Assembly: GCA_964597345.1 (NCBI GenBank)
Contig: CAZQXK010000001.1
Coordinates: 94,777 to 158,776, forward strand
Origin: an uncultured Thermodesulfobacteriota bacterium
Lineage (GTDB): Bacteria > Desulfobacterota > Desulfarculia > JACQYL01
Length of the DNA stretch: 64,000 bases
Direction of reading: 5' to 3'
Under the pieces are notes generated by a model. It was not told where the DNA came from, made no database searches, and was given only the letters and a program-made list of their open reading frames with translations. Positions 6,993-57,735 of the stretch are shown here, piece after piece. Each line of letters opens with the position of its first letter. Positions within the stretch are counted from its first letter, which is position 1. Made by a program: the position numbers and the translations under genes.

Positions 6993-7136
6993 GACAAACA
7001 GCTTTGCGGGCAGGCCGGTGAACAACGATGAGATGCCAGGAGCGCGAACCCTGAGGAATGAGGCGTACATAGAGAGTACGCCGCAATGACGAAGGGTGAT
7101 GCGCAACGCCGCGGATCGCGTTTTTCACCGGCCTGC
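6993..7136 (-). repeat. intergenic imperfect-palindromic repeat, copy 1 (about 145 bp family)
   Basis: Shares the core ...TTGCGGGCAGGCCGGTGAA(c/a)AACGATGAGATGC(a/c)AGG(c/a)GCGCGAA(t/c)CCTGAGGAATGAGGCGTACA...GTACGCCGCAATGACGAAGG(a/g)TGA(a/t)GCGCAAC(a/g)C(c/g)GC(a/g)GATCGCGTTTTTCA with the other copies. Coordinates approximate. Confidence 0.8.
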
Positions 7137-7535
7137 TATGCAAGCAGACCCTGGAAGGCGGCCCCAGGTTTATTGGAGGCGGACGATTTTCGGATAGGCC
7201 GGGGAAAAAAGGGGCGCCGAGGCGGTGGGTTTCATACCTGGTCGCTCTATTGTGCAGCCCAGAGTTGCAGCGGTACGCGGCTCGAAGCCCCGTAGTTCCT
7301 CGGTGCGGATCGTTGTTTCCACCGCCAGACGACGGTGCGTGGGGTTCGGTCTTCAGCTACGGACCAACGGCCGGGTTTCCGTGCGCGCTGCTTTGCGATG
7401 ATTGGGTGATGCATACGGGGGATAGGAGGAAACCGCATACCGATTGTGGGTCGCTTTCCGAGTCCAGGCGCCGATTCTATTGCAATCTATCGGATTTCCT
7501 TATATCGTGAAGTCATCCATGGGGAAGGGGGATCC

Positions 7536-7850
7536 ATGAAGAAGGCCGCTACTAAGGAAGATATCATTACGCGCGTCCTGAAAGAACGAGATCGGCTTGT
7601 TTTCTTGGGCGTCATCAGTATTGGATTGTTTGGGTCCTTCGTGCGGGGTGACCAGAAGCTCTCAAGTGATATTGACATTCTGGTGGAATTCAGGCCTGAA
7701 AAGCATACCTTCGATAATTTTATGGAAGTTTCGTTTCTTCTGGAAGCAATCCTGGAGCGCAAGGTGGAAGTGGTTACCCCGGAGGGGCTCAGTCCTCATA
7801 TCGGACCGCACATTCTCAAGGAGGTGGAGCGTGTCCTTCTCATCGGCTGA
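7536..7850 (+). CDS. nucleotidyltransferase-domain antitoxin (MntA-like, minimal NTase)
   Basis: LFGSFVRGDQKLSSDIDILVEF matches the GS...DxD minimal nucleotidyltransferase motif. GGGGAAGGGGGA ribosome-binding site before the ATG. Followed 14 nt later by a HepT/DUF86 partner. GC content is lower than flanking DNA. Confidence 0.75.
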   Translation: MKKAATKEDIITRVLKERDRLVFLGVISIGLFGSFVRGDQKLSSDIDILVEFRPEKHTFDNFMEVSFLLEAILERKVEVVTPEGLSPHIGPHILKEVERVLLIG

Positions 7851-7863
7851 GTAAATCCGCCAC

Positions 7864-8172
7864 ATGCTCGACGAGATAGAATTCATCCTGAGCCGGACTT
7901 TAGATACGGATTACGAATCGTTTGTCAGGGACGAGACCCTCAAGAGAGCCTTTGTCCGAGGTATGGAAATCATTGGGGAGGCTGCGAAGAAAGTTTCTGA
8001 AGATGTGAAAAGGATGCAACAGGATATTGAGTGGCGGAAGGTGTCCGGAATGCGGGACAGGCTGATTCACGACTATTTTGGTGTCGACTACAAGATTGTC
8101 TGGGACGTTGCCACAAACAAACTGCCTGAGCTTCGAATGAAGCTCAATGCCCTGATTGGCATGATGGATTAA
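7864..8172 (+). CDS. HepT-like (DUF86) RNase toxin, partner of the MntA-like NTase
   Basis: RDRLIHDYFGVDYKIVW contains the Rx4HxY HEPN motif characteristic of HepT/DUF86. Size and pairing typical of type VII-like MntA/HepT modules. Confidence 0.75.
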   Translation: MLDEIEFILSRTLDTDYESFVRDETLKRAFVRGMEIIGEAAKKVSEDVKRMQQDIEWRKVSGMRDRLIHDYFGVDYKIVWDVATNKLPELRMKLNALIGMMD

Positions 8173-8334
8173 TGCCGACCATCCGTTCAACCGAACGCGG
8201 AAACAGCGATTTTCTTTTGAATCAGTTCCTGACGGTGTGCGGCGTTGTGTTCGGTGCAGTCGAGAATGGGGTAACAGGGAAGGAGAGTATGTCTCCTACT
8301 GTTCTGTAAACGGGACCGTGGAGAGTCTATTTTC

Positions 8335-8562
8335 GTGAGTCGCGACATACACGAACCGCCTCATGTCCACATCGATCGTGACGTTTTTTCAGCCAAGTTT
8401 GGCTTAACTCGTTGGCCATGGAAAATGTCCTATAAAACACTTTCCAGCAGATCTACTCGTGCCAAAATAATCATACAAACAGTGAGTTATGAAAATGCGT
8501 GTAATGAGAAAAATTTGACTTCTGAAGGTCGTACAGGTTATTTTAAAATAACTTTTTACTGA
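8335..8562 (+). pseudogene. DUF4160-like gene remnant (only the N-terminal motif conserved)
   Basis: GTG-start ORF. HEPPHVHIDRDVFSAKFGL resembles the DUF4160 N-terminal PPHFHxxY signature. The rest is unrelated low-complexity sequence. Lies in the AT-rich island. Confidence 0.25.
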
Positions 8563-8615
8563 GGAGGAGTTCAAAACGACCGGGAATAGCCAGATGATTC
8601 TGGAGGGGGTAGTAT

Positions 8616-8873
8616 ATGAAAGAATTACAAGTCAGATGCCAAACTCAAGATGGTATGTTCAGAGATGAAAAGGTTGTTACAGTTCGAGGAGAATCCGGAG
8701 AAAGAAGTTTTTTTGTTGATAAATCGCAACTAAGTCAAAATTTTGTTAGGGCAGTCGTTTTGCAAGAAGAGGAGTCACGATCTTTTATAGCAATTCCTGG
8801 CATGCCGGCCGATAGCGTCCCTACAAGACTTTGGATAGATAAGCAAAATATAACTTCCAAAAAACAAGTATAA
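8616..8873 (+). CDS. hypothetical small protein (85 aa) in the low-GC island
   Basis: Strong GGAGGGGG Shine-Dalgarno sequence 7 nt upstream of the ATG. No recognisable family. Confidence 0.4.
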   Translation: MKELQVRCQTQDGMFRDEKVVTVRGESGERSFFVDKSQLSQNFVRAVVLQEEESRSFIAIPGMPADSVPTRLWIDKQNITSKKQV

Positions 8874-8897
8874 ACTACTTTTTTGGATTATAAGAGC

Positions 8898-9496
8898 ATG
8901 ATTCTATCTGATGTAGATATTCAAAAGGCAATAGAGAGTGGCAGTTTCAAAATAGAACCGCGTCCTATTTATCCTGATGATTACGATACAACCTCTGTAA
9001 ACCTTCATCTCCATGATGAATTTCTGTCCTGGGAGTTAGATGACATAAAAAAGCGCTTGGTAAATCATTTAGCATACATGTTGGATCCTTCGATTATAGG
9101 ACGTTTGCCGATATTGCTGCTAAGTTAAAGAAGGAAGTCGATTATGAAGGTGCCGTAATCCTGAATCCAGGACAATTTATTCTGGCACAAACAATGGAAA
9201 TAGTGGGCAATAAAGATCCAAGCTGTTGCTTGGCCGCTCGCGTAGAGGGACGGAGTAGTTTGGCCAGGATAGGGCTAATGGTTCATATGACCGCTCCAAC
9301 CATACACGCTGGATTTGAAGGAAAAGTTACCCTCGAATTATTCAATACCGGCCCTATACCTTTACGGATGTGCCCAGGCGACAGCATTTGTCAGTTGATA
9401 ATAGAAAAGGTTAGCAGTCCACCAGGTGGTTCGATGGATGGAACACAGTTCCAGGGTCAGCAATCTCCTCGTGGATGCACACCGTCACCTACATGA
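8898..9496 (+). pseudogene. dcd: dCTP deaminase (dcd/dUTPase-fold), interrupted by one frameshift near 9060-9110
   Basis: N-terminal half in frame 0 (MILSDVDIQKAIESGSFKIEPRP...) ends at TAA 9126-9128. C-terminal half continues in the -1 frame, open from 9050: ...FADIAAKLKKEVDYEGAVILNPGQFILAQTMEIVG...GRSSLARIGLMVHMTAPTIHAGFEGKVTLELFNTGPIPLRMCPGDSICQLI. It aligns with E. coli Dcd ([26 protein letters not shown]...[35 protein letters not shown]). Combined length is about 200 aa, equal to an intact Dcd. Confidence 0.6.
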
Positions 9497-9593
9497 GGTG
9501 TAACAAGGCAGGATGGGGTCATGGCACCCCTAATGGCGGTCGGATGGCGGCCTGCGCGTGCGCTTCCCGCAGCCTCCCGCTGGAAGAACAGGA

Positions 9594-10295
9594 ATGAAAT
9601 TGGATAAAGTCAAAGAAATAGCGCAGCGGCGAATATGGACGGAAATTTTTTTGGGGCACAATGCAAGTTCTATGTATTTGTCATTATCTGAACATGCCGA
9701 AAGATTGAATCAATCGGACTCAAAAATTGTGTTCGGGTTGATGCAGCGGCACGCTCTTGATTCGCTTATACTATCTATAGGCAAGATTTATGACAAACCT
9801 TCTATAAAATATCCAAATTATAGCATTCCAACGGCCATAGAATGTATTAAAAAAGAGATGTCAAAAATAAGCAATCAAGCCAGTACCAAGATAAATCTCA
9901 TACAATTCATTCAAAAGCATATTGATCCTGGCTTCAATGAAGCCAGTAAAACGGACTTAGATCGAGTTCCGGAAATAATCGTCAACTGGTTAGATAAGAA
10001 CTGCCCTCGGACCCCTAAACGTTGCGGCTCTCAACTTGACCATGACCTTGAAGCCGTGAAGGTTTTGCGGGATAAACGTGTGGCCCATTCGGAGGATCAT
10101 GATCTTCAAGGGTTAAGCACGACAGATCTTGACGGTCCTCTCCGTCTACTGGCATTTGCCGGAACGTTTGTTAACCTTATCGGATATGGGTTCTTTGGGT
10201 CCTGCTCGGAATGTTTCGCGGATCCTGCAATGTTTGCTCCAGACAAGAGCGAGGTTTGGCCTCAGATGCAAAAACTGCTGAAAATGGTCAAATAA
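9594..10295 (+). CDS. Rx4-6H HEPN-like protein (AbiU2-like?), in the low-GC island
   Basis: 234-aa low-GC ORF with an R-x5-H motif (RDKRVAHSEDHD) that fits the HEPN RNase signature. Family assignment from memory only. Confidence 0.45.
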   Translation: MKLDKVKEIAQRRIWTEIFLGHNASSMYLSLSEHAERLNQSDSKIVFGLMQRHALDSLILSIGKIYDKPSIKYPNYSIPTAIECIKKEMSKISNQASTKINLIQFIQKHIDPGFNEASKTDLDRVPEIIVNWLDKNCPRTPKRCGSQLDHDLEAVKVLRDKRVAHSEDHDLQGLSTTDLDGPLRLLAFAGTFVNLIGYGFFGSCSECFADPAMFAPDKSEVWPQMQKLLKMVK

Positions 10296-12784: not shown

Positions 12785-13641
12785 GATGCACCCCTCGCCG
12801 GGATACAGGCTTCAAGCCGCAGCACCAGGTTTCCCGCTACTTGGCGCCGGTACGCGGCGCCGGCCCGGAGATCGTCTATGGGCCGGACGGCGTTGCTGGC
12901 CTCCTCGGCGGCTTCCTCCAGCGCCCGGTGGGAGATGGGGTGCCCTTCCAGGCGGCGTTCCGCCTCCGGGGACGTGATTACCGTGGGTCCCACGCTGCCC
13001 CAGGCGAGCCGGGCTCTCTCGACGACGCCGGATTCGGAAACCTGAAGCACGGCGGCCATGCTCACCAGGGCGATGGCCAACGCGTTCCGTTGGCCCACTT
13101 TTTCGAAATACTGGAGGGTGCGGCGGGTGTCCATTTTCAGACGGACTCCGGCCACGATTTCGCCCGGGTTCAATACGGTGTTTCCCGGACCCCGGATGAA
13201 TTCCGGTACGGAAACCCGCCGGGAGCCTTGGCGGGTTCTCAATTCCAGTTCCGCATCCAGTACGGTCAGAGGAGGCAGGGTGTCGCCCGCCGGGGAAGCA
13301 GTGACCAGATTGCCTCCCAGAGTGCCCATATGTCGCACCGGCGGCGAACCCAGGACGCGCAGGGCCTGTTCCAGGACCGGAAAAAACCGCTTTACCGGGG
13401 AGGAAGCCAGGAGTCGGGAGTGGGAAACCCCGGACCCCACGAACAGCCGTGGACCCTCCTCCCGCAGGACTCGAAGCTCCTCGATCCGTTCCAGGCCGAT
13501 CAGGCTAGGAGAGGACGCGGGATCCCGGCGCAGGCGGACGAACAGGTCCGTTCCGCCGGCGAACACCCGGCCCTCAGGGTGTTCGTCCAGAACGTCCCAG
13601 AGTTCGTCCGGCGTTCGGGGGAGAAACACGGCCCGGATCAC
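12781..13641 (-). CDS. xanthine dehydrogenase/CO dehydrogenase family FAD-binding subunit (CoxM/XdhB-like)
   Basis: VFAGGTDLFV...MGTLGGNL FAD-binding motifs. GTG start overlapping the upstream stop (GTGA), fourfold overlap with the MFS start. About 287 aa, typical for CoxM. Confidence 0.75.
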   Translation of the reverse strand: MIRAVFLPRTPDELWDVLDEHPEGRVFAGGTDLFVRLRRDPASSPSLIGLERIEELRVLREEGPRLFVGSGVSHSRLLASSPVKRFFPVLEQALRVLGSPPVRHMGTLGGNLVTASPAGDTLPPLTVLDAELELRTRQGSRRVSVPEFIRGPGNTVLNPGEIVAGVRLKMDTRRTLQYFEKVGQRNALAIALVSMAAVLQVSESGVVERARLAWGSVGPTVITSPEAERRLEGHPISHRALEEAAEEASNAVRPIDDLRAGAAYRRQVAGNLVLRLEACIPARGAS

Positions 13642-14111
13642 CGCACGCCTCGCGGAATGCGGGCCGCCGCGTGCTCCACGGCGTCCACGATTTTCGCGTA
13701 CCCCGTGCAACGGCACAGGTTGCCGCTCAATCCCTCCCGGATATCCTCCCGGGTGGGTTCCGGGTTCCGGGCCAGGAGGTCCGCCGAAGCCAGCACCATT
13801 CCGGGCATGCAGTATCCGCATTGAACGGCCCCGCATTCGATGAAGGATTCCTGGATGGTTCGATAAGAAGAGTCCTCCTCCGCCCCTTCAATGGTGAGGA
13901 TTCGGCGTCCCTCCAGTTGAGCCGCGATCATGAGACAGGACAGCCGGCTTTCTCCATCCGCCAAGATGGTGCACGCCCCGCATTCCCCGGAACCGCAGCA
14001 TTCCTTGGTCCCCGTGAGTCCGAGATCTTCCCGCAGGAGATCCACCACGCGGCGGTCCGGCGGGGATTCCACAGTGATCCGCTTTCCGTTCAAAACAAAA
14101 GAGATCTTCAT
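13638..14111 (-). CDS. (2Fe-2S)-binding small subunit of a molybdenum hydroxylase (CoxS/XdhC-like)
   Basis: MKISFVLNGKRI...CGSGECGACTIL...CGYCMPGMV...NLCRCTGY carries both canonical [2Fe-2S] cysteine clusters. The longer ORF-track N-terminus reads through repeat copy 2 and is rejected. Confidence 0.8.
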   Translation of the reverse strand: MKISFVLNGKRITVESPPDRRVVDLLREDLGLTGTKECCGSGECGACTILADGESRLSCLMIAAQLEGRRILTIEGAEEDSSYRTIQESFIECGAVQCGYCMPGMVLASADLLARNPEPTREDIREGLSGNLCRCTGYAKIVDAVEHAAARIPRGVR

Positions 14112-14119
14112 AACATCCC

Positions 14120-14260
14120 GTTGAAAAACAGCATTTCGGACAGGCTGTTCCAAAACGATCAGATGCAAGGCGCGCGAATCCCGAGGAATGAAGCGTACAA
14201 CCCCTACGTTGCAATGACGCAGGATGAAGCGCAACACAGCAGATCGCTTTTTTCAACAGC
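14120..14260 (-). repeat. intergenic palindromic repeat, copy 2 (inside the Mo-hydroxylase operon, between L and S subunit genes)
   Basis: GTTGAAAAACAGC...GATGCAAGGCGCGCGAATCCCGAGGAATGAAGCGTACA...GTTGCAATGACGCAGGATGAAGCGCAAC...GATCGCTTTTTTCAAC. Confidence 0.8.
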
Positions 14261-16586
14261 CTGATGAGTTCTCCCGAAACTCGATTCGGTCCAGGGCGGA
14301 CAGCACCCGTTCCGGAGTCAGGGGTAATCGCCGGATGCGTATTCCGGCGGCGTCCGCCAGTGCGTTGGCCACGGCGGGCAACGGGGCGTTGATGGAGATC
14401 TCCCCCACCCCCTTGAGGCCGAAGGGCCCCGTCTCCTCATAGGTTTCCACCCGCCGGGATTCCATGTCCGGCGCGTCCTTGGCCGTGGGCAAAATGTACG
14501 TGGCGAAATTCAGGGTGCGGCCTTCTCCTTGGTCCACCACGTAGTCTTCATACAATGCGTATCCCAAACCCTGGACGATGCCTCCCTGGACCTGCTGGTC
14601 GTAGAGCTGGGGATTGATGACGCTTCCCGCGTCCGTGACCGCCAGGTATCGCACCACCTGAATGCGACCCGTGAGTTCGTCCACCTCGATGTACGCCAGG
14701 TGGGCCGCGTAGGAAAAAAGAAGGTGAGGCAGGCCGAAAACCGGGGAATTGCTTTCCATCCGGATGCGTTCCCGGCACGCGGGAGCCCGCCACTGATACG
14801 TGCATTCCCGCTGGGAAGGGGACATGGAGCGGGCTACCGAGGCCAGCGGCGCATCCCTTCCCGAAGGAAGATGGCGGACGATGCCCGGCAGCAAGTGAAA
14901 TTCCTCGGGCGAGGGAGCCATAATCATGAGGGCGGCCTGGTCCAGGATCCGCTTCTTGAGCAGACGGGCGGCTCCCGTCAGGGCCTGGGCGTAGGTGTAC
15001 GTGGTGCGGCTGGCTGCGGACGTACAGGAGGGAAGGGTGCGGTCCGTATCCGGAAGCACCAGGTCCAGGCGTTCCGCGTCCTGATTCAACAGGTGGCCCG
15101 CCACCTGAAGGCAGGTGGACGCGTTGCCTTGACCCATGTCCGGAACCCCGCAGGTAACCGTGATACGGCCTTCGGGGGTCAGGCGGATGAGCGCCTGGGC
15201 GAAGTCCGGAATGATCGGGCCGTACCCGGCGCCGTGGGCCGTACAGGCCAACCCCGCTCCGCGCTTCTTGAAAGGGGCCGCACCGTTCTTCCAGCCTTCC
15301 CGTTCCTTCCAGAGGGGATGCCGTTCCACTTGCTCCAAACATTCCAGCAGGCCCGTGGACTGGGTCAGCGTGACGCCCACGGGGTTGCGGTCGCCTTTCC
15401 GGACGGCGTTCCGCATCCGAAATCGCAGCGGGTCCACCTGAAGCCGGGCGGCCAACAGGTCCATGACCTGCTCGAGGGCCGCGGTGACCTGCGGCGCCCC
15501 GAATCCCCGGAAAGGACCGCCGGCCGGGTTGTTCGTGTACACGCACCGGCCGTGTATCCGGACATGGGGAATTCGGTAGGGACCGCCCGCGTGCTCCACG
15601 GCCAGCGCCAGGATTTCTCCTCCCAGGTGTTCATAAGGCCCGTTGTCCAGATCCAGGGAGCATTGAAGCGCATGCAGGAGGCCGTCGCTTCCGGCTCCCA
15701 GGCGGTATCGGACGCGGCCGCACAGGCGTTTCACCCCGGCCAGAAAGCTTTCTTCCCGGTCCCACCACATTTTCACGGGACGCCCTCCGGAATGCAGAAC
15801 GGCGAGACCCAGAAGGCACTGGACCGTGCACCCGTCTTTGCCTCCGAAAGCGCCCCCCAGGTAAGGAGCCACGATACGCACCCGATCCCTTTCCAGTCCC
15901 AGCGCTTCGGCCGCCTCGGTCCGATCGCGGAAGGGCGACTGGGTGGAGGCTACAATGACGATCCTTCCGTCCTCGTCCGCATAGGCCCAACCCGCTTCCG
16001 TTTCCAGGTAGGCATGTTCCTGTCGGGGTAATTCAAACTCGGCGTCCACCATGGTGACGGAGGGTTCCATGTCCTCCAGGCCGTTTCCCTTGCATACGGT
16101 GAGTTCGGCCAGGATGTTTCCCGAAGGATGATCCTCGTGGATCCGCGGAGCCCCCTCCGCCAGAGCCTCATCCACCGAAAACACCGGCGGCAGGGGTTCC
16201 AGCCGGACGCGCACGGCGTCCAGCCCCCGGGCCAAAGCCTCCCGGCTTTCCGCAAGGACCAACGCCAGGGCGTCGCCGCGTCGCCGCACCTTCCGGTCCA
16301 CCAGCACGGGTTGATCCTTGATCACGATGCCCTGCCGGTTGGAACCCTTCACGTCCCGGTGCGTCAACACCGCCGTCACGCCGGGGGCGGTCCGGGCCGA
16401 TTCCACCTCCAGCCCCAGCAGCAGGGCGTGCGATTCCTCGGACCGTTTGACTCCGGCCCACAGGAAATCGGAGCCGTAATAGTCCGCGGCGAAACGCTCC
16501 CGTCCGGTGATCTTGCTCCAGCCGTCCGCCCTCGGAAAGGGGACGCCGATCTGAAGCGGCCCGGCGGGGCGGTCAGTTCCGGCCAT
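14253..16586 (-). CDS. molybdopterin-binding large subunit of a xanthine dehydrogenase/aldehyde oxidase family enzyme (CoxL-like)
   Basis: About 777 aa. Ald_Xan_dh N-terminal and Mo-cofactor-binding C-terminal regions (GGAFGGK, GPFRGFGAPQ-type motifs). Start taken as MAGTDRPAG. Confidence 0.8.
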   Translation of the reverse strand: MAGTDRPAGPLQIGVPFPRADGWSKITGRERFAADYYGSDFLWAGVKRSEESHALLLGLEVESARTAPGVTAVLTHRDVKGSNRQGIVIKDQPVLVDRKVRRRGDALALVLAESREALARGLDAVRVRLEPLPPVFSVDEALAEGAPRIHEDHPSGNILAELTVCKGNGLEDMEPSVTMVDAEFELPRQEHAYLETEAGWAYADEDGRIVIVASTQSPFRDRTEAAEALGLERDRVRIVAPYLGGAFGGKDGCTVQCLLGLAVLHSGGRPVKMWWDREESFLAGVKRLCGRVRYRLGAGSDGLLHALQCSLDLDNGPYEHLGGEILALAVEHAGGPYRIPHVRIHGRCVYTNNPAGGPFRGFGAPQVTAALEQVMDLLAARLQVDPLRFRMRNAVRKGDRNPVGVTLTQSTGLLECLEQVERHPLWKEREGWKNGAAPFKKRGAGLACTAHGAGYGPIIPDFAQALIRLTPEGRITVTCGVPDMGQGNASTCLQVAGHLLNQDAERLDLVLPDTDRTLPSCTSAASRTTYTYAQALTGAARLLKKRILDQAALMIMAPSPEEFHLLPGIVRHLPSGRDAPLASVARSMSPSQRECTYQWRAPACRERIRMESNSPVFGLPHLLFSYAAHLAYIEVDELTGRIQVVRYLAVTDAGSVINPQLYDQQVQGGIVQGLGYALYEDYVVDQGEGRTLNFATYILPTAKDAPDMESRRVETYEETGPFGLKGVGEISINAPLPAVANALADAAGIRIRRLPLTPERVLSALDRIEFRENSSGC

Positions 16587-19969: not shown

Positions 19970-20003
19970 GTATCCACGTGGGACCGAACCCGGTGTGGTG
20001 TTA

Positions 20004-45558: not shown

Positions 45559-45561
45559 CGG

Positions 45562-47064: not shown

Positions 47065-47718
47065 CGGAATGCCTTTCTGATTGAATGCCCGGATGATGCC
47101 TTCGAGGTCCCGCCGCATCTCCGAAAGCGAAGTGAAATAGGGATCCAGCGCCGCTATACGCTTGGCCAGGGGCGCGTATTCCTCTCCAAGTCCCATGAGC
47201 CATTCGCTGAAATCGTTGTTGCCGTGCTCGGTTCTTCTCCGAGCGTCGATGAAATGGTAGAAAATGCTTCCCAGGGACATCCGGCCTATAAACTCGGACA
47301 GGTCGCCGGGATGGGTAATCTGTACGGCGGTATCCAGCACCACGATCTGGGAGCGAATGAAATGAAAGCGCTGACTCGCACGCATCCAGCCCAGGATTTC
47401 ACTTTCATCCAGAACTTCCTCGATCACCTCCACCAATTCGTGTCGGAGATCCTCCAGATCCGGATATTCCGTGGGATCGATGATTCCCAGGCGCTCGGCC
47501 AGGCGCGCTTCATGCAAGCCGTGCCATGCCCAGGAGGCGAAATCGTTCTGGTATTCCGGATCGTCGAACCGCGGTTCCAGCAGCCCGCCCCAGAAATGGT
47601 AATAAATGCACCCCGGATGGGTGCTTTCCAATCGATCCCTCAATTCACGCAGGGTTTGCGCGCGTTCCCCCGTGGCTACGGCAATGAGGGCGCAGTCTTT
47701 GATAGCGAAAGGTTCCAT
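47062..47718 (-). CDS. conserved hypothetical protein co-transcribed with treT (DUF5752-like?)
   Basis: 218-aa soluble ORF, translationally coupled to treT (TAATGA). Family recollection uncertain. Confidence 0.4.
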   Translation of the reverse strand: MEPFAIKDCALIAVATGERAQTLRELRDRLESTHPGCIYYHFWGGLLEPRFDDPEYQNDFASWAWHGLHEARLAERLGIIDPTEYPDLEDLRHELVEVIEEVLDESEILGWMRASQRFHFIRSQIVVLDTAVQITHPGDLSEFIGRMSLGSIFYHFIDARRRTEHGNNDFSEWLMGLGEEYAPLAKRIAALDPYFTSLSEMRRDLEGIIRAFNQKGIP

Positions 47719-47891
47719 AACGGACTCCCGGGATGGGTCATGGGTTTGCCCGGTTCAACCCGAAGGCGCGGGTGTTCCTGTGGAGTTCGAGGTTCTTTTC
47801 TGAAATTCGGGGACAGGCGGCGTCGGATCGGTCCCTTGCTGTTGAGAATTCCTTGCGTCTCATTCAACCTCCGGAAACCCCATCGGCCATC

Positions 47892-50684
47892 CTATTCGCT
47901 GAGCAGCAACGCTACCGGAAAGTGCGTCAGCACATCCGAGACCGGTAACGGGTGTTTGTGGAGCACGATCCGACCCGTGATCGCATCCCGCCATCGGCTG
48001 GGTGGGCCTCCGGATAAAACCAGCTCCGTGTCTTCCCAAACACGGGGACCCAAAGGAAAGTCGCCGGACTCCACCAATGCCGTGCAGAACCGGGGCGCCG
48101 CCGTGACGGCCATTTCTCCTCCGTAGTTTCGGGCGAAGGCGATAATGTGCCCCGCTTTTGCTCCCTGAGCCTCGATGGGAAGATAGGCCCCTTGGAGAAA
48201 CAGCTCTGGCCTCTCGCGGCGCGCCGACAGGACCCGGTGGATCAGGAACATCTTGATTCGCCCATCGTCCGGATGCGCGAGCACCGTTTCGATGAGTTCG
48301 AGGAGATCCGTTTCAGCGCCGCGCATCAGTTCCTTCAAGTGGCGCCGGCGGAGTTCAAAATCCACGGGCCTGCGATTGTCCGGATCCACGAGGCTCAAAT
48401 CCCACAATTCAGTGCCCTGGTACACATCAGGAATCCCCGGGCACGTGGATTTGAGAAGCGTCTGGGAAAGGGAGTTCAACATGCCGTAAAAGGAGATCTT
48501 GGCCTGAAACGGCTGGAATTCCTTCAAAAAAGGGTTGTCTTCCCGTTCATCGAGGAGCTTGTCCAAAAAATTCAAGAAGGCCTGTTCGTATTCGGAATCC
48601 GGTTTCAGCCAGGCGGTGTGTACCTTGGCTTCCCGCACGGCCTTGATGACATATTCCTTCATGCGCTCCACGAATTCGCGAGAGGCCTTCCCTTCCAGAG
48701 GATAGGCCCCCAACAGATTCTGGTAGAAGGCATACTCGTCGTTGCGATCCGGAGCCTTGGCCCCGTGGACCGTCTTCTTTTTCCGTGCGGCGAATGCGCC
48801 CCATTTCTTGAGCTGCTGGCTCCACTCCGAAGGGATCTCAGACAACACATGAATTCGAGCCCGCACATCCTCGCTTCGCTTGGTATCGTGCGTGGAGGTG
48901 GCATTCATGGTGTAAGGCCACTGTTCCAAACGGCCTATGTTGAATTGGTGAAAACGTTCCAAAGAAATCCCAAAAACACCGGGATTTCCGCCCACATCGT
49001 TGAGCGAGAGAAGTCTGTTATAGCAATAAAGTAGTGTATCTTCGAAAGACTTGGCCATTAACGGCCCCGTGAATTGCTGGAACCGCATGGCGAAGTGGAG
49101 CCATTTGTTCTTTTCATCATCAGAAAAGTATTCTCCGAATGTCAAAGTAAGGAACTTTTCCAGGAAATCCAATTCATAGAGCAATGCTGCGTTATTTTCC
49201 ATGGCCTTTTGCACGGCCTTCTTAATAATTTCCTTGTCCTGTTCAGGAGAGTGTGCGGCGTTGATGTAGGTTCTATATACCGGGAAATGGCACATGAGTT
49301 CGACAATGGCGCTCTTGAGTCCCTGGAGGGTTATATCGCTGCCGTGACGGTAGCGTCCGGAAATGCCTTTGAGCAGTGTCGCCAGATCATCCACGTCTCC
49401 CGCCATTTCTTTGCGAACGATCAGACGTTTCTTTTCATATACCAGGTGGGGAAAGGAAAGAGGATGGGGAGTGAAGCGGGCGTAGACGCCGGTAAACCGC
49501 TTTTCATTTCGCGAATGACAAAACACGCCGTTTACGTGATTCAGAAAATCGTAACCCGTGGTGCCTTGCACGGGCCAGAACTCCGGCAGACGCTCTTCTT
49601 GTTCCAGAATCTTTTCAACAACCAGGTACGCGTCCCCAATCCGGCTCCTCAAGCGTTTCAGGTAGCTCGAGGGATCATAAAGACCGTCGATGTGATCGAT
49701 TCGCACACCCGTGATTCGACCGGAGTCGATGAGATCCAGAAGCAGACCGTGGACGTGCTTGAACACCTCGTCGTTCTCGATCCGCAAGCAAATCAATTCG
49801 TTGATGTTGAAAAAACGCCGGTAGTTGATCTCTTCCGTGGCCACTTTCCAGAAAGACAAACGGAAATGCTGCTCGGCCAATAGATTCTCGAGATGCAGAA
49901 AACTCTCCGGGTCTCCTTTTTCTCCATTTATAGTCCGTATGTTTCTGTCCAGATGATCCCTTATAGTGAGATTATTGGCGTATAATTCGTAAAGAAGTCT
50001 TTTAATAAACTGAATTTGCGTATATCTTTCATCCACTTCATCATGGGTCGATATAGTCTTTAAGACATATAATATTCCAAGAAATTTAATAAAGTCGGGG
50101 TGAGTATCGCCTATTATTCGCTTCAGGCGATTGATATCGAATGTTAATACGTCCAAATACGATTCCAGCCTTAGTGGGAACATGAGCTGGTAATAGTTGA
50201 ACCTCATTCCATACTGGTCATACTTAAGCTGTATTTCCTGGTCCTCGAGACACTCGCCGTAAAAACGTCCCAGAAATGGCGCCAGGAGGCGTTGTCCGGG
50301 TTCGTGGTACGGAAGGGTCCATTCGATATCGAAAAACTCATAATATTTGGAATATGGACCGTTCTCGAGGATATCCATAAGGATCGTATTGTCGTGGTCG
50401 TAGGCCATGTGATTGGGAACGAAGTCCTGAATCCATCCCAATCGCAGTTCCGCGGCTTTCCGAAGCAACTCCTGGAACTCCTCGGCGGTTCCGAGTTCCG
50501 GGTTCAGCTGAAGGGGGTCCACCACGTCATACCCGTGGGTGCTGCCCTTCCGGGCTCTAAAGACGGGGGATGCGTAAACATCGGAGACGCCCAGATCGGA
50601 CAAATAGTCCAGGACGGCCCATGCCTGCCGGAACCCGAAAGACGGTCCGAACTGGAGTCTGTAGATGCCGGTGGGTATTTTCAT
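47892..50684 (-). CDS. treY: malto-oligosyltrehalose synthase (TreY), GH13 family
   Basis: MKIPTGIYRLQFGPSFGFRQAWAVLDYLSDLGVSDVYASPVF...GSTHGYDVVD is the canonical TreY N-terminus. About 930 aa. 1-nt overlap with the upstream gene. Confidence 0.85.
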   Translation of the reverse strand: MKIPTGIYRLQFGPSFGFRQAWAVLDYLSDLGVSDVYASPVFRARKGSTHGYDVVDPLQLNPELGTAEEFQELLRKAAELRLGWIQDFVPNHMAYDHDNTILMDILENGPYSKYYEFFDIEWTLPYHEPGQRLLAPFLGRFYGECLEDQEIQLKYDQYGMRFNYYQLMFPLRLESYLDVLTFDINRLKRIIGDTHPDFIKFLGILYVLKTISTHDEVDERYTQIQFIKRLLYELYANNLTIRDHLDRNIRTINGEKGDPESFLHLENLLAEQHFRLSFWKVATEEINYRRFFNINELICLRIENDEVFKHVHGLLLDLIDSGRITGVRIDHIDGLYDPSSYLKRLRSRIGDAYLVVEKILEQEERLPEFWPVQGTTGYDFLNHVNGVFCHSRNEKRFTGVYARFTPHPLSFPHLVYEKKRLIVRKEMAGDVDDLATLLKGISGRYRHGSDITLQGLKSAIVELMCHFPVYRTYINAAHSPEQDKEIIKKAVQKAMENNAALLYELDFLEKFLTLTFGEYFSDDEKNKWLHFAMRFQQFTGPLMAKSFEDTLLYCYNRLLSLNDVGGNPGVFGISLERFHQFNIGRLEQWPYTMNATSTHDTKRSEDVRARIHVLSEIPSEWSQQLKKWGAFAARKKKTVHGAKAPDRNDEYAFYQNLLGAYPLEGKASREFVERMKEYVIKAVREAKVHTAWLKPDSEYEQAFLNFLDKLLDEREDNPFLKEFQPFQAKISFYGMLNSLSQTLLKSTCPGIPDVYQGTELWDLSLVDPDNRRPVDFELRRRHLKELMRGAETDLLELIETVLAHPDDGRIKMFLIHRVLSARRERPELFLQGAYLPIEAQGAKAGHIIAFARNYGGEMAVTAAPRFCTALVESGDFPLGPRVWEDTELVLSGGPPSRWRDAITGRIVLHKHPLPVSDVLTHFPVALLLSE

Positions 50685-53113
50685 CACAGTACCTTTATGC
50701 GGAGATGGCCGCCGATTCTCCGAAATGTCTCGACCCATGCCTCGGCTCCGGCATCCCCGTTGGCGGCTTTTCCGGAAACTGCAGGATAGGCGTCGCCGGT
50801 CATGAGAAAATACAGGTTCTGGGCCTTCCAGAGGTTTATCGGGAGATCCAAAGGGGCCAGTAGAACAAAAACCTGCTCCAGCCGTCTCAGGGATTCCGTG
50901 TCCTGGAGATGTTGGGAGGCCCGGGTCAGCAAATCGGTGATGCGGCACTCCACCAGATAGGTCAGCGGATCCCGTTCCACGGAGATATTCCACCTTCGAA
51001 CATCCGCCATGGTCTTCTGCAGGCGTTCGGTATCCGTATCGGGTTCTTCGAAGATATTTCGCAGATCCATGTTCAGCACGAATTCGGTGGTCACGGCCAG
51101 GGGTTTCGGTAATGTGGACTGGATTTCATTGAAGAAATTGATAACCATATAATTGTTCTCCACAAAACGGCGGAAGGAAAATTCGATTTCGTCCGTGGCG
51201 TTTCGGAGGATTTCTTTCAAGACCTTGGTCTGTTCATCCTTGAACAGGTGCCACAACGTGAAACTGTGGCTCCCGAAATGCTTGTCCATAAGGCGCACGA
51301 TTTCCAAAGTATCGCCCAAACGGAACGCGCTTTTGATTTCTTCCTGCATGGTGTGAAAAAAGTCCGGATCCGTGTCCGCGCGTACGCAACAGCTCACATT
51401 ATGATCTCCCAGGTGAAGAGCCGTGAAGGTGACGCCCCCCTCCTCCCAGGTGATATCCGACACGATCCGGCTGCGCCCGACGGCCAGCTTGAGTGCGCCC
51501 GCCTCAAACCGTTCATAGGATTCGTTCCGGACGGAATAGCAGTAGGAGCCGATATCTTCCAGATGTTCTTCGAAGAGGGACGAAATGGCGTAATGGGCCC
51601 CCACGCGGTCCAGATCAATGCCGGAGGGCTTCACGAACCGCTGGTACACGTCCTTTCCGTTCCGGAATTCCGACAGATTGCTCGGTGCGTGCTGGAGCAT
51701 ATCCGTGAACGCGGGCTCCAGGGCCTCGCCGTTTTCCTGTTCCGCCAATTGAATGGCTCTGGCCGCATATTTCAGGACCTGGGTGGTTTCAAGGCCGGAG
51801 ATTTCATCAAAAAACCAGCCGCAACTGGTGTACATGAGCATGGCGTGACGCTGCATCTCCAGGAGGCGCAGGACCCGGATCTTTTCTTCAGCGGAAAGAT
51901 TCCGGGCGCTGTGTCTGGCCATGAACGCATCGATGTTTCGTGGTGAACGATCCAGGATCACGTCGATATAGTCGTTGCGGGCCTCCCAGGGGTTTTTCAG
52001 GAACCCCGAGGCCCGTTCTTCGAAAAGGGGGATCAGGCGGTCCCGCAGATTGTCTAGAGCATCCCGCAGAGGCCTGCGCCATTCCTGGCGCCACCCGGGG
52101 CGCATGCCGCTGTTGCATCCGCAGTTTCCACGCCAGCGTTCCACGCCGTGGATACAACTCCACGAGGAATTGCTGTGGATTTCCACTTCATGCGTCGGGG
52201 GATGTCGCTCCAGGTACTCGCCGTATATCGTGATCCTGGCCAGCTGGTGGGATTCGATGAAATGGAGGCAATAGGAGAGAGCCATTTCCCCTTGTCGGTG
52301 ATGATGCCCGTAGGTTTCTCCGTCCGTGGCGATATGAACCATACGCGGCCGGTCATTGTCGGCGGGCAACGCGCTCATGAGTCGATGGGCGAAGGCTTCG
52401 CCGTTTTCAAGAATTCCGCCGAAGGCGGTATCCTGGGATATAGGACCGTCGTAAAAGAAGAGGGCGATGCTGCGGCCGGACGGTAAACGGCAGCGGTACG
52501 GCATGGTGGGATCGATGCGGCCGCCCTGTACGTCCCACCAGGGGTCCCGGCCGTGCAGGGGACGGACCCGCATGGCCTGGCGAGGCGCCAGGATGGTGAA
52601 GGCGATGCCCTGCTCGGCCAGAATACTCAGGGTCTCCAAATCCACAGCCGTTTCGGCCAGCCACATGCCCTCGGGGGAACGTCCGAATCGTTTCTGGAAA
52701 TCCCGAATTCCCCACAGCACCTGGGTGTACTTGTCCTTTCCGTTGGCCAAGGGCATGATCATATGATTGTACACTTGCGCCAACGCGGCGCCATGCCCCG
52801 AAAACCGTTCCTGGCTCAGGTTATCGGCCTCCTGAATGGATTCGTACACGTCGCGGTGATGCGCTTCCATCCAGGACAGCAGCGTGGGGCCGAAGTTGAA
52901 ACTGATCCGGGTGTAGTTATTGATGATATCGATAATACGCCGCTCGTCGTCCAGTATGCGGGACGCCGTGTTGGGTGCGTAACATTCCATGGTGATCCGC
53001 TCGTTCCAGTCGTGATAGGGCGAAGCGGAATCTTGAAGTTCGACCGCTTCCAGCCACGGATTTTCCCGAGGGGGCTGATAAAAATGCCCATGAATGCAGA
53101 CGTACCGTTCCAT
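50684..53113 (-). CDS. GH57-family glycoside hydrolase with C-terminal DUF3536-like region (alpha-amylase/branching/4-alpha-glucanotransferase-like)
   Basis: MERYVCIHGHFYQPPRENPW is the GH57 N-terminal signature. ...HIATDGETYGHH catalytic region. An alternative earlier start exists. Confidence 0.7.
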   Translation of the reverse strand: MERYVCIHGHFYQPPRENPWLEAVELQDSASPYHDWNERITMECYAPNTASRILDDERRIIDIINNYTRISFNFGPTLLSWMEAHHRDVYESIQEADNLSQERFSGHGAALAQVYNHMIMPLANGKDKYTQVLWGIRDFQKRFGRSPEGMWLAETAVDLETLSILAEQGIAFTILAPRQAMRVRPLHGRDPWWDVQGGRIDPTMPYRCRLPSGRSIALFFYDGPISQDTAFGGILENGEAFAHRLMSALPADNDRPRMVHIATDGETYGHHHRQGEMALSYCLHFIESHQLARITIYGEYLERHPPTHEVEIHSNSSWSCIHGVERWRGNCGCNSGMRPGWRQEWRRPLRDALDNLRDRLIPLFEERASGFLKNPWEARNDYIDVILDRSPRNIDAFMARHSARNLSAEEKIRVLRLLEMQRHAMLMYTSCGWFFDEISGLETTQVLKYAARAIQLAEQENGEALEPAFTDMLQHAPSNLSEFRNGKDVYQRFVKPSGIDLDRVGAHYAISSLFEEHLEDIGSYCYSVRNESYERFEAGALKLAVGRSRIVSDITWEEGGVTFTALHLGDHNVSCCVRADTDPDFFHTMQEEIKSAFRLGDTLEIVRLMDKHFGSHSFTLWHLFKDEQTKVLKEILRNATDEIEFSFRRFVENNYMVINFFNEIQSTLPKPLAVTTEFVLNMDLRNIFEEPDTDTERLQKTMADVRRWNISVERDPLTYLVECRITDLLTRASQHLQDTESLRRLEQVFVLLAPLDLPINLWKAQNLYFLMTGDAYPAVSGKAANGDAGAEAWVETFRRIGGHLRIKVL

Positions 53114-54949: not shown

Positions 54950-55110
54950 GTAGGTTCCCATTCGGTAGCCGGTTCCGTCGCACAAAGACGCCGCACTGAC
55001 CGCGCACGTGCTTCGACGTCGACCCACCGGTTTGTTGAGCAATTGCGTAAGGCATTCCCAAAAGCGAAGATTCAAGGCGTATCCACGGGCTCTGCCCCAC
55101 GGCGCGTTCA

Positions 55111-56832
55111 TCAAGGTCGTTTCAACAGATTTTTAAGGTCAGCCAGGCATCGTGTGTTGATGACGTCGCCGGGTTCGAGCCACCCCCGCCTCGCCTGAAA
55201 TACGCCGAATCGCATAAACTCCAGATCCGTGATGCTGTGCGCATCCGTGGAAACCGCCACCTTGACTCCCATTTGTTTCGCAAGCCGGCAGTGGCTATCC
55301 GTAAGATCCAGCCGATCCGGATGGCTGTTGAGTTCCATGAAGCAGCCGCGTTTCCGGGCGGCCTCCAGAAGGAACTCCATATCCACGTCGTAGGGATCGC
55401 GTTCGTTGATGAGGCGTCCTGTGGGATGAGCCAGGATGCGGAAATACGGGTTGTCCATGGCTCGCACGATCCGTTCCGTTTGCTTTTCTCGAGACAGGTT
55501 GAAGTGGTAATGAACGGCGCACACCGTAAGATCCAATTCCCGCAGAATGTCGTCGGGCAAGTCCAGGGAGCCGTCTTCCAGGATGTCCACCTCAACAGCC
55601 TTGAGCAGTGTGAATCCATTCAATGTTCCGTTCAATCGGTCAATCCGGTCCATGACCGCCGCCAGCCGCCGGGCGTCCAATCCCCGCGCCACGGCCACGC
55701 GCCGGGAATGCTCCGTAACGGCCATGTACTCGTATCCCAGTCTTTGGGCGGCCTCCGCCATTTCCTCCAGGGTATGGCGGCCGTCCGTCTCCCGAGTGTG
55801 AATATGCAAATCTCCCCGCAAATCCTCAAGCCGGATGAGTTCAGGCAAGCATCTCTGTTGGGCCGCTTCGATCTCTCCCGTGTCTTCACGCAGCTCCGGC
55901 TCGATGAACGGGAGACCCACACGGCCGTATACGTCCTCCTCCGTGGTTCCACCAATACGCCGTTCCCCTTGGAACACTCCGTATTCGTTGATCTTCAGGT
56001 TTTTCTTCTGCCCGAGTTTCCGTACGGCGATGTTATGAGCCTTGGAGCCCGTAAAATAATGGAGCGCGGCGCCGTAGCTCTCCTCGGGGACGGTACGGAC
56101 ATCCACCTGGATGCCGCAACGCAACACTACCGTGGATCGTGTTTCGCCGTGGGACACCACTTCGGCCACATCTTCGTACCCCACAAATCGGTTCATCACA
56201 TCGGCGGAATGGGTGGCAATAACCAGAATATCCAGGTCTCCCACGGTTTCCTTTCTGCGGCGGTAGCTTCCCGCAACCTGGACGCGCTGCACTCCGAAAA
56301 CCTGCTCGAGGCGGGTGGTAAGGGCCGAAGCCAGGTCTTGGGCTTCCACGAGCTTGGTTCGGCTTTCCCGCGACTTCAGCCGTTCGATTTCCTGGAGGAT
56401 CTTTTGTTCCAGCTTCACGCCGAACCCTTTAAGACGTTGGATTTTTCCGGAAGCGGCGGCTTCCCTCACATCCGTTGCGGTGCGGATGCCCAGTTCGTCG
56501 TGGAGCGTCTTGACCCGTTTGGGACCGAGGCCCGCGACATGCATGAGGGCCCGTAGCTCCGGAGAAGTCCGCTCCCGGATGTCCTCCAACTGGGCCAGGG
56601 TCCCGGTTCGTACGATTTCCTGGATCTTCTCCGCCAGATCTCTGCCGATGCCGGGAAGTTCCTCGAGATCTTCCCCTCGCCGGACCATGTCCGCCACGGA
56701 CGGGGCGAGATCCCCCAGGAATCGGGCCGCGTTCCGGTACGCCCGGACCCGGAACGGATTCGCCCCCTCGATTTCCAGAAGGTCCGCCGTTTCGTCGAAC
56801 AATTCGGCTACGGTCCTATTGGTGACGGCCAT
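55111..56832 (-). CDS. polX: DNA polymerase X family protein with C-terminal PHP 3'-5' exonuclease/phosphoesterase domain
   Basis: N-terminal HhH/pol beta-like (GIGRDLAEKI...GVGPKRV...GSYRRRKETVGDLDILV). C-terminal PHP (GDLHIHT...HS...AHP...DAH). Confidence 0.85.
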   Translation of the reverse strand: MAVTNRTVAELFDETADLLEIEGANPFRVRAYRNAARFLGDLAPSVADMVRRGEDLEELPGIGRDLAEKIQEIVRTGTLAQLEDIRERTSPELRALMHVAGLGPKRVKTLHDELGIRTATDVREAAASGKIQRLKGFGVKLEQKILQEIERLKSRESRTKLVEAQDLASALTTRLEQVFGVQRVQVAGSYRRRKETVGDLDILVIATHSADVMNRFVGYEDVAEVVSHGETRSTVVLRCGIQVDVRTVPEESYGAALHYFTGSKAHNIAVRKLGQKKNLKINEYGVFQGERRIGGTTEEDVYGRVGLPFIEPELREDTGEIEAAQQRCLPELIRLEDLRGDLHIHTRETDGRHTLEEMAEAAQRLGYEYMAVTEHSRRVAVARGLDARRLAAVMDRIDRLNGTLNGFTLLKAVEVDILEDGSLDLPDDILRELDLTVCAVHYHFNLSREKQTERIVRAMDNPYFRILAHPTGRLINERDPYDVDMEFLLEAARKRGCFMELNSHPDRLDLTDSHCRLAKQMGVKVAVSTDAHSITDLEFMRFGVFQARRGWLEPGDVINTRCLADLKNLLKRP

Positions 56833-57571
56833 AGATCGTTTCCCTCAACATCCGGGTCAGGCGTAGGGCATCCCGCGCGGCGTATCCTGCCTGGTCGTTG
56901 TCGAAATAACAGAAAATCTCCTTTCCGGCTCCGGCCCAGTCCAGAATCTTTCGGGTCCAAACCTCAAGCCCGGAATCGCCGTATTCTCCCTGATAGGCGG
57001 TACCGGGTCCATGAAGCCGGATATAGACGAAATCGGCTGTGACCACATCCGGAGCCATTCTGCCGTCCAGTTCATAGATACAAAAGGAAAGGCTGCGTGT
57101 TTTCAGTATCTCATACACGGAAGGATGAAACCAGGAGCCGTCACGAAATTCGAACGCAAAGCGGAACCCTTCCGGGAGCGCCTCGACGAAGGTCGCGAGC
57201 CGATCCCGATTGAGAGACCAGTGGGGCGGAAGTTGCAGTAAAACGGGCCCCAACCTGGGTTTCAACAGCTCGATGCGGCTTAAGAATGGATGCAGCGTAT
57301 TCCGGGGATCCTTGAGTTTCTTCATGTGGGTGATATATCGGCCGGCTTTGACGCAGAAGATGAATCCCCCGGATACCGCTTCCCGCCAGCCGCTCAGGGT
57401 GTCGGCGGAAGGCAGGCGATAAAACGAATGGTTGATTTCCACGGTATGGAAGCGAGCGGAGTAATACGATAGAAAGTCGGCGCGGGCCATGGAATTCGGA
57501 TAGAAAGGCCCCTTCCAGTGATCGTAATGCCATCCCGAGGTACCGACGTGAACCCGGTCTTGAAGATCCAT
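56816..57571 (-). CDS. DUF72 family protein
   Basis: VGTSGWHYDHWKGPFYP...FHTVEINHSFYR are canonical DUF72 opening motifs. Confidence 0.75.
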   Translation of the reverse strand: MDLQDRVHVGTSGWHYDHWKGPFYPNSMARADFLSYYSARFHTVEINHSFYRLPSADTLSGWREAVSGGFIFCVKAGRYITHMKKLKDPRNTLHPFLSRIELLKPRLGPVLLQLPPHWSLNRDRLATFVEALPEGFRFAFEFRDGSWFHPSVYEILKTRSLSFCIYELDGRMAPDVVTADFVYIRLHGPGTAYQGEYGDSGLEVWTRKILDWAGAGKEIFCYFDNDQAGYAARDALRLTRMLRETIYGRHQ

Positions 57572-57650
57572 GTTTCGCCCGAATCCGTTGTCCCGCCCAC
57601 ACCAAACCCAGCATCTCCGGACCCATCGCCGCGAGGTCGTTCCCTGGCGG

Positions 57651-57735
57651 GCTTATGAAAGACGGAATCCACCGTGTTGCGCTTCACTCTTTGCGTCGGC
57701 GATTCGTACGTAATCCTGTCTTTCCACCGGCTGCC
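57651..57735 (+). repeat. partial (half) copy 11 of the palindromic repeat
   Basis: ...GACGGAATCCACCGTGTTGCGCTTCACTCTTTGCGTCGGCGATTCGTACG... matches the left arm only. Confidence 0.5.

Follow-up and report, generated by a model that had tools for sequence, protein, structure and literature searches.

The DNA analysed here, a 64-kb stretch of contig CAZQXK010000001.1 from an uncultured Thermodesulfobacteriota bacterium (hereafter the window), carries multiple copies of a repeat of about 148 bp that an earlier note had described as an imperfect palindrome dispersed between genes. The whole window was examined by three methods: a repeat search, an nhmmer profile built from a seven-copy alignment, and a covariance model (CM) run with its filters off. 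The repeat search yielded nine direct-repeat families and sixteen inverted pairs, all of them collapsing onto the coordinates already listed. The nhmmer profile detected nine full-length copies (E = 1e-25 to 1e-51) and partial matches at 40876–40940, 57644–57693, 57795–57836, and 44714–44821, and the CM found the same nine copies, a decayed one at 44694–44823 (E = 1e-4), and both fragments. The window thus holds nine clear copies, one decayed copy, and two fragments, on both strands and, according to its gene map, every one of them intergenic. The copies listed earlier are therefore real, as the three methods recovered them alike, including the two degenerate pieces; only the decayed copy at 44694–44823 had been overlooked.

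Strands of the copies are given as the orientation of the seed model, and the complement of the seed orientation is called the "rev" strand. Copy 1 (6985–7141, − strand; nhmmer E = 3.5e-47, CM 121.6 bits, fold z = −7.8 on the favoured strand) has an intact hairpin part at 7006–7140 and a degenerate outer right end, and lies in the divergent intergenic region between a metallo-beta-lactamase-fold gene (6085–6849, −) and an MNT/HEPN toxin–antitoxin pair. Copy 2 (14111–14270, the element proper at about 14115–14262, −; E = 2e-50) is found inside a molybdoenzyme operon, between the MoCoBD_1/2 large-subunit (L) gene (14253–16637, −) and the Fer2_2 [2Fe-2S] small-subunit (S) gene (13638–14102, −), with the FAD subunit next to the latter. 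The reading frame of the L subunit ends in ENSSGC, its TGA stop codon lying within the left terminal repeat of the copy, and the ATG of the S subunit, whose protein starts MKISFVLNGK, follows directly after the right end. Copy 3 (19997–20168, about 20006–20163, +; E = 1.2e-47) separates an RsbW-like HATPase_c_2 gene (19550–20044, −) from a STAS anti-sigma antagonist gene (20256–20594, −). The earlier placement of copy 2 between the L and S genes and of copy 3 between RsbV-like and RsbW-like genes was correct in both cases, as revealed by the Pfam domains of the neighbours (MoCoBD and Fer2_2; STAS and HATPase_c_2) and, for copy 2, by the translated junctions.

Copy 4 (20833–20992, about 20836–20983, −; E = 3.3e-49) lies between the STAS gene and a DUF3795 gene (20985–21524, −). 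Copies 5 (21756–21910, with the insertion at 21763–21905 plus a duplicated GTTATC, +) and 6 (22063–22219, about 22069–22215, +; E = 6.8e-50, fold z = −9.2) share a divergent region upstream of an FGE-sulfatase gene (22235–23212, +); copy 6, oriented like copy 5 and 153 nt downstream of it, directly precedes the gene. Copy 7 (28668–28851, about 28673–28843, −; E = 8.4e-25, CM 36.5 bits), with mini-hairpin insertions, adjoins a hemerythrin-domain gene, and copy 8 (39258–39449, about 39259–39442, −; E = 3.5e-31, CM core match at 39340–39398) is flanked by two co-directional + strand genes, one encoding a 753-aa protein with no Pfam match and the other a GT4 glycosyltransferase. Fragment 9 (40876–40983, −; partial nhmmer match with E = 1e-6, CM E = 0.087), between convergent genes, is a short, degenerate derivative in which the tail and terminal repeats surround a mini-hairpin (40935–40948) and the conserved core is missing. 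The decayed full-length copy (44694–44823, +; nhmmer E = 3.9e-6; CM 28.5 bits and E = 1.2e-4 on the − strand, in "rev" orientation) is upstream of a response-regulator gene (44902–45558, +), and copy 10 (45550–45712, about 45560–45707, +; nhmmer E = 3.6e-49, CM 107.3 bits) lies between this gene and a convergent gene for a trehalose-synthase-like glycosyltransferase (Pfam). Finally, a left-half remnant (57643–57738) and a terminal-repeat-like piece (57795–57836) were detected at 57643–57836, in a divergent intergenic region (nhmmer E = 2.7e-6 and 1.4e-3; CM E = 0.12).

The canonical length of the element is 147–148 bp (copies 2, 4, 6, and 10), with a GC content of about 55–60%. The seven-copy alignment showed the GTTGAWAAAC and GTTTWTCAAC motifs and the central palindrome, GGCGTAC-N4-7-GTACGCC, much as they had been described; folding, however, did not pair the two outer motifs with each other, because the terminal repeat is present three times. 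An internal copy, CGTTTTTCACCGGCCTG, is the pairing partner of the left end, (C)AGGCCGTTGAAAAACG, and the two enclose an imperfect hairpin of about 100 nt whose core is centred on GGCGTAC-loop-GTACGCC, and a tail of about 25 nt (CCCGAAATACG) then separates this inner right repeat from the third copy of the motif, GTTTATCAACGGGCT, which constitutes the true right terminus. The terminal inverted repeats are of about 15–17 bp; 13 of 15 positions agree between the left one, AGGCCGTTGAAAAAC, and the right end read as its reverse complement, AGCCCGTTGATAAAC. The two strands of the element are clearly distinct, as the CM scored 7006–7140 at 121.6 bits on one strand and at 18 on the other. Copies 3, 7, and 8 exceed the canonical length because of additional CACGCC-N3-4-GGCGTG mini-hairpins at various internal positions, also present in fragment 9. 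These are CACGCCTTCGGCGTG at 20098–20112 in copy 3, those at 28802–28815 and 40935–40948, and two in copy 8 (39325–39339 and 39402–39415), and another was seen in a copy from a different genome (L004). By their sequence, these mini-hairpins seem to be a smaller repeat unit of their own, lying inside the larger one.

Evidence of mobility came from the one 94%-identical relative that the STAS protein has in public metagenomes, whose contigs (L091–L093) were compared with the window; the relative occurs in the samples JGI 3300005254 and SRR5506739. These contigs align to positions 20164–22700 at about 94% identity, with two clean gaps that correspond to copies 5 and 6. Copy 4 is common to both genomes (L091 1471–1630, 93.8% identical) and is thus an older insertion than the other two. 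In the relative, the empty site of copy 5 reads GTCGGATAACGGAAAG, whereas the window has GTCGGATAAC, the element, and ATAACGGAAAG; in the orientation of the element, GTTATC is found on either side of it and only once in the empty site, as corresponds to a target-site duplication of 5–6 bp. Copy 6 is also absent from the relative, as L091 has no segment matching window positions 22000–22219, and it shows the same geometry with a decayed target-site duplication. Copy 3 is flanked by GTTATC and GTTATG. With its empty site in the relative, copy 5 is a recent insertion, and together with copy 6 it attests to activity of the element after the divergence of these two lineages, about 94% identical. 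At the position equivalent to that of copy 3 (about 20160), the relative carries different DNA (L091:2300–2414) that ends, at the contig end, in the start of an open reading frame (ORF), MSKVSVIGIDLAKN, which may resemble the N-terminus of an IS110-family transposase.

Target-site duplications were also frequent among the related copies from other genomes that belong to the A type described below. Of 60 copies, 36 were flanked by exact direct repeats of 6 nt or more, compared with about 1 of 60 when flanks were paired between different copies; their modal length was 6 nt, many reached 7–9 nt, and the sequence of the duplicated flanks varied. These copies are bounded by terminal inverted repeats as well (GACGGATTCGTAAAAAG versus GATGAACTCGTAAAAAG). 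Empty sites with a duplicated target exclude local duplication as the origin of the copies, and the target duplication itself excludes recombination systems that do not generate one. Together with the terminal inverted repeats and the presence of at least 89 loci in other genomes, these data uphold the proposal of the earlier note that the repeats form a dispersed family resembling miniature inverted-repeat transposable elements, or MITEs.

Being small, non-coding, dispersed, and polymorphic in their insertion, and having terminal inverted repeats and target-site duplications, the repeats are, in our opinion, very probably a MITE, that is, a non-autonomous DNA transposon of about 148 bp that constitutes a new family of a known class of elements. 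A transposase encoded elsewhere in the genome would cut or copy the element at its terminal inverted repeats, AGGCCGTTGAAAAAC and GTTTATCAACGGGCT, and insertion into intergenic DNA would then duplicate 5–6 bp of the target, with a preference for GTTAT-like sites. Such mobilization in trans would be the task of a DDE-type transposase, and operons may withstand insertions because a stop codon comes with the element and the start codon of the downstream gene is preserved. No Pfam family was detected for the ORFs crossing the copies, nor any transposase domain in about 56 window ORFs scanned, both of which are consistent with a non-autonomous element.

The earlier note had also considered the repeats REP-like (repetitive extragenic palindromic) and a possible substrate of a REP-associated tyrosine transposase (RAYT) or of an IS200/IS605 TnpA-Y1 enzyme. 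Palindromes of the REP/REPIN type, or derived from IS200/IS605, would be moved as single-stranded hairpins by Y1/HUH transposases (RAYT or TnpA), and the hairpin architecture, the strand asymmetry of the pairing, and the high intergenic density of the repeats do recall REPINs. However, the copies have terminal inverted repeats and are flanked by target-site duplications, which Y1 transposases are not known to make; moreover, the element is far larger than a REP, its arms are not REP-like palindromes, and the ORFs scanned in the window revealed neither a Y1_Tnp nor a RAYT domain. This explanation is therefore extremely unlikely, and that part of the note had to be abandoned. The IS200/IS605-derived palindromic elements named PATE, which have subterminal hairpins and no terminal inverted repeats and insert 3' of a fixed tetra- or pentanucleotide without duplicating it, were discarded for the same presence of terminal inverted repeats and of duplicated flanks of variable sequence.

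Spurious ORFs, some of at least 100 aa, do cross copies in the window, as had been pointed out; a database search with one such peptide gave no match, and thus no sign of the contamination of public annotation that the earlier note had considered possible. The frames that are open through the element differ from copy to copy, and the variation in the stems is compensatory and lacks codon periodicity, so that a coding mini-gene was rejected.

To analyse the distribution of the element, a 23-mer of the core, GTACGCYTCATTCCTCNGGRTTC, was searched as an exact pattern in a set holding a single genome for each species, and all the genome loci were ascertained in this way. At least 89 loci matched in many Desulfobacterota genomes, with several per genome. 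Among the matches listed were Desulfosarcina (variabilis, cetonica, and alkanivorans), Desulfococcus, and Desulforapulum; Syntrophus, Smithella, and other Syntrophales; Syntrophobacteraceae; Desulfofustis and Desulfobulbaceae; one metagenome-assembled genome (MAG) of Geobacteraceae (L056); and one MAG labelled Nitrospirota. Desulfosarcina variabilis CP159846 and D. alkanivorans AP021874 are examples of complete genomes in which the element is abundant. Among these same matches, only one Syntrophobacteraceae MAG (L004, L014, L028, and L062) matched the window profile from end to end. The window type, named B, is a lineage-specific, Syntrophobacteraceae-like branch of a wider superfamily that spans Desulfobacterota, and the copies listed elsewhere belong to type A, of about 205–215 bp, with the same centre and different arms: the left end carries (T)GACGGNTTCGTAAAAAG, whose exact complement recurs internally, and the outer right end carries CTTTTTACGAGTNCATC. 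The layout with three terminal repeats is therefore common to both types. No plasmid matched 20 kb of the window or two element copies, so a plasmid origin or plasmid-borne copies were dismissed, and carriage by phages as a vector of its spread was likewise rejected after 2.9 million viral contigs gave no match.

In other Desulfobacterota genomes and metagenomes, the terminal repeat (T)GACGRNNTCGTAAAAAG was also found bounding hairpin cargos different from the core, such as ATGCCGCGCTGCGGCA, CCCCTCCCC...GGGAGGGG, and GTCATTCCnGCGAAnGCnGGAATGAC (L018:~690–830, L084:~3550–3610, L121:274 and 2690, L108, L195, L116, L198, and L180). In addition, there were elements of about 50 nt consisting of the two terminal repeats alone. 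Other cargos and repeat-only elements alike were seen in the genome loci and also in a scan of metagenomes built to bypass the core. Since other cargos occur within A-type terminal repeats, the core is not needed for mobilization, and the sequences suggest a modular MITE chassis; a shared transposase acting on the end sequences would yield A-type repeats around varied cargos as well as repeat-only mini-elements. Behind the same terminal repeat, three metagenome loci (L113, L155, and L216) carry a diverged core in which CAAGGCGTGCAAATTTTGTAATCATGAGGCGTAC replaces ...GCGAATCCTGAGGAATGAGGCGTAC; the core is thus not invariant everywhere, and variants of this kind escape the 23-mer used for ascertainment.

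Comparison of the two types revealed that conservation is concentrated in the core, of about 90 nt, which on its favoured strand reads CAAGGCGCGCGAAUCCUGAGGAAUGAGGCGUAC-loop-GUACGCCGCAAUGACGAAGGAUGAAGCGCAACGC. Identity between A and B was 0.81 in the core, including its variable loop, and 0.36 and 0.42 in the 5' and 3' arms, respectively; within A, the corresponding values were 0.86, 0.65, and 0.74. The 23-mer lies in one arm of the core, and its use inflates the apparent conservation of that arm; the opposite core arm, outside this selection, is equally conserved. Across classes, conservation reaches at least 90% in the purine-rich internal loops (UGAGGAAUGAGG opposite GCAAUGACGAAGG). In an alignment of 85 sequences, RNAalifold predicted 35 pairs, 23 of them with compensatory changes. 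Paired cells amounted to 96.1%, compared with 85.3% in shuffled alignments (none of 500 reached the observed value) and 33–47% in slid controls, and the covariation score was 0.329, compared with 0.136 in the 500 shuffles and 0.04–0.07 in the slid controls. G·U pairs, valid on the "rev" strand only, exceeded A·C oppositions, which would be G·U on the other strand (family A, 149 to 20; family B, 39 to 9), and the "rev" strand gave the more stable fold in five of six window copies (z = −7.8, −4.0, −5.3, −3.3, −2.1, and −9.2, compared with −6.0, −0.7, −2.3, −2.8, +0.1, and −7.7 on the other strand). The excess of G·U, which derives partly from a few states fixed within subfamilies and partly from ascertainment, is moderate evidence for a strand-specific single-stranded phase, either of RNA or of DNA.

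These data could also mean that the core is a functional structured RNA or single-stranded DNA motif produced from one strand, the MITE being merely its vehicle; as RNA, the copies would act, for instance, as protein-binding hairpins or as determinants of the processing or stability of the transcripts containing them. The covariation, the strand asymmetry of pairing and folding, the conserved internal loops, and the fact that the same terminal repeats mobilize other cargos, so that the core is dispensable for transposition, all argue in this direction. On the other hand, with mobility and target-site duplications demonstrated, selfish spread alone explains the copy number; long DNA palindromes also covary; the 23-mer lies inside the core and inflates its conservation; and a few states inherited within subfamilies make up most of the G·U counts. 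Furthermore, no promoter is evident, and copies point either way with respect to the adjacent genes; a crude measure gave a bias of 24 to 7, which a second one, with 21 to 21, failed to reproduce. Nor was selective constraint visible in the copy 4 shared with the relative, which diverges at the rate of its surroundings (93.8% identity, compared with 91–96% in the flanks). On balance, we regard this explanation as possible but doubtful, and it is somewhat unlikelier still that the core, common to several Desulfobacterota classes (at least five), is a new structured RNA or single-stranded DNA module with a function of its own. In this reading, the core appears to be carried as cargo on MITE chassis whose terminal repeats diverged along with lineage-specific transposases. 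No Rfam family was detected in the whole window at gathering thresholds, or in 19900–22300 at E values up to 10; the hammerhead, other small ribozymes, K-turns, and CsrA sites were considered for the core by eye and rejected, as the topology of the hammerhead does not fit and no Rfam match was obtained.

Several facts also weigh against a plain MITE. Clean duplications were seen in the window only at copy 5 and, nearly, at copy 3, the other flanks being decayed. In the window, Pfam searches revealed no autonomous insertion sequence with corresponding ends, and no pair of terminal repeats 0.6–4 kb apart with matching flanks was found in the 89 genome and 120 metagenome loci. The solo terminal repeats of the 89 genome loci, and the metagenome scan for a repeat followed by non-core sequence, led only to other MITE cargos and to ordinary genes, those beside solo repeats being judged ordinary by sequence appearance. 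A parent of the ISDol1 group (ISNCY) or similar to IS21 is a tentative lead, and a literature search on ISDol1 gave nothing useful. In addition, conservation is higher in the core than in the terminal repeats (0.81 compared with 0.36–0.42 between families), the reverse of a typical MITE, and the left repeat covaries with the inner right one; as neither feature is required for recognition by a transposase, both point to a constraint beyond simple transposition.

A different origin would be that of sequences selected by the host for regulation, as bidirectional intrinsic terminators or mRNA stabilizers, and spread by duplication or recombination. The long stable hairpin is indeed bracketed by an A-run and a T-run, a crude survey of gene arrangement at the copies found 24 convergent compared with 9 divergent cases, and the tail of copy 2 fits a terminator-like pattern. 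However, the precise empty sites with a duplicated target indicate insertion events, and copies are located in divergent promoter regions (1, 5, and 6) and inside operons (2 and 3), where termination would be harmful. Moreover, a terminator pattern scan flagged only the tail of copy 2 and none of the main hairpins. The T-run that follows the inner stem lies within a longer helix, being base-paired once the whole hairpin forms. For these reasons we consider this origin very unlikely. A role of the copies as terminators or mRNA stabilizers, as suggested in the earlier note, would be a putative one, and their orientation relative to genes showed no consistent bias. Two other known classes were discarded. 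Integron attC sites form arrays in one orientation beside an integrase, with R''/L''–L'/R' boxes and a GTTRRRY core, whereas the copies are scattered among unrelated housekeeping genes, on either strand, and their ends do not fit GTTRRRY. The rhizobial RIME and Brucella Bru-RS repeats, a first guess based on GC content, were dropped because the listed matches are in Desulfobacterota.

Regarding the genes around the copies, copies 3 and 4 flank the STAS gene of a minus-strand partner-switching cluster (16573–20594), which also includes a Cache/HAMP-SpoIIE (PP2C) phosphatase (16573–18582, −) and an NMT1-like protein (18569–19549, −); in a more distant homologous locus (L094), the gap between the STAS and RsbW-like kinase genes is just 61 nt. 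Beside copy 1, a low-GC island at 7446–10295 (GC of 0.43 at 8001–10000, compared with about 0.6 around it) encodes the nucleotidyltransferase/HepT (MNT-HEPN) toxin–antitoxin pair (7446–7850 and 7864–8172), a truncated dCTP-deaminase-like ORF (9194–9496), and an AbiU2-type HEPN protein (9558–10295), and looks like a small acquired defence island. The long ORFs at 36996–39257 (753 aa) and 58069–60585 (838 aa) have coding-like GC3 and no Pfam match at E values up to 0.001. In addition, three + strand ORFs of 269–300 aa at 47224–49883, with no Pfam match, overlap a 1033-aa alpha-amylase-family gene (47892–50993, −) and are probably shadow ORFs; they illustrate how readily the high-GC sequence here yields long spurious ORFs independently of the MITE. 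No tRNA gene was detected in the window.

In practical terms, these elements break metagenome assemblies, the contigs of the relative ending at them, give rise to spurious ORFs of at least 100 aa, and are located inside operons; masking them is advisable when Desulfobacterota genomes are annotated. The element can also supply the stop codon of a gene, as for the L subunit of the molybdoenzyme, and continues to generate variation in an uncultured syntroph-like lineage. Its class is an ordinary one, and the remaining interest lies in the core, strand-asymmetric and conserved across classes. Its conservation above that of the ends recognized by the transposase points to a selected RNA- or protein-binding function, if upheld in an unbiased census; if true, the core would be a bacterial counterpart of the functional non-coding modules spread by transposons.

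In comparison with known systems, the element shares with other bacterial MITEs (Correia of Neisseria, RUP, Nezha, and MITEAba12) a non-coding sequence of less than 300 bp, a long hairpin, terminal inverted repeats, target-site duplications, and many dispersed intergenic copies, with insertion polymorphism between close relatives and tolerated insertion beside or inside operons. It differs from them in that its arms diverge between lineages while the centre is nearly constant, in having a third terminal repeat, located internally and paired with the left end, and in that no parent insertion sequence was identified in the window or in the 209 loci. Dense intergenic hairpins maintained by compensatory changes are also typical of REP/REPIN with RAYT, but REPINs consist of two REPs of about 25 nt, without such terminal inverted repeats or target-site duplication. 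The bacterial interspersed mosaic elements (BIMEs) of E. coli and the RIMEs of rhizobia are similarly modular; in the present family, modularity shows in the CACGCC-N4-GGCGTG hairpins found at different places in copies 3, 7, 8, and 9 and in the terminal repeats that enclose different cargos in other genomes. Nevertheless, BIMEs and RIMEs lack target-site duplications at their ends, and their sequences show no relationship to that of the element.

Another known system is Chunjie, a MITE from Geobacter uraniireducens Rf4, A+T-rich and described with a size of 178–235 bp, 21-bp terminal repeats, and 9-bp direct repeats (Chen et al. 2008, cited through PMC3184786 and PMC10969869). As far as its description goes, it is likewise a deltaproteobacterial (Desulfobacterota) MITE with a very stable hairpin, mostly intergenic and with one copy in an unbroken operon; the A-type copies, of about 205–215 bp, fall within its size range, and a Geobacteraceae MAG (L056) carries the core. 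Compared with that same description, our element has shorter terminal repeats (about 15–17 bp) and duplications (5–8 bp), window copies of 148 bp, and a higher GC content (about 55–60%). Finally, the enterobacterial repetitive intergenic consensus (ERIC), also known as intergenic repeat units (IRU), of Enterobacteriaceae and Vibrio is an imperfect palindrome of about 127–150 bp (about 127 bp in the table of PMC3184786), present in both orientations between genes and within transcription units; its host phylum is unrelated, and the two are likened by architecture only, with no claim of homology. In a 2024 survey, nearly all prokaryotic MITE clusters were confined to one genus (PMC11602168), so the presence of this core in several classes is unusual, although ERIC, with a sequence conserved well beyond one genus, provides a precedent.

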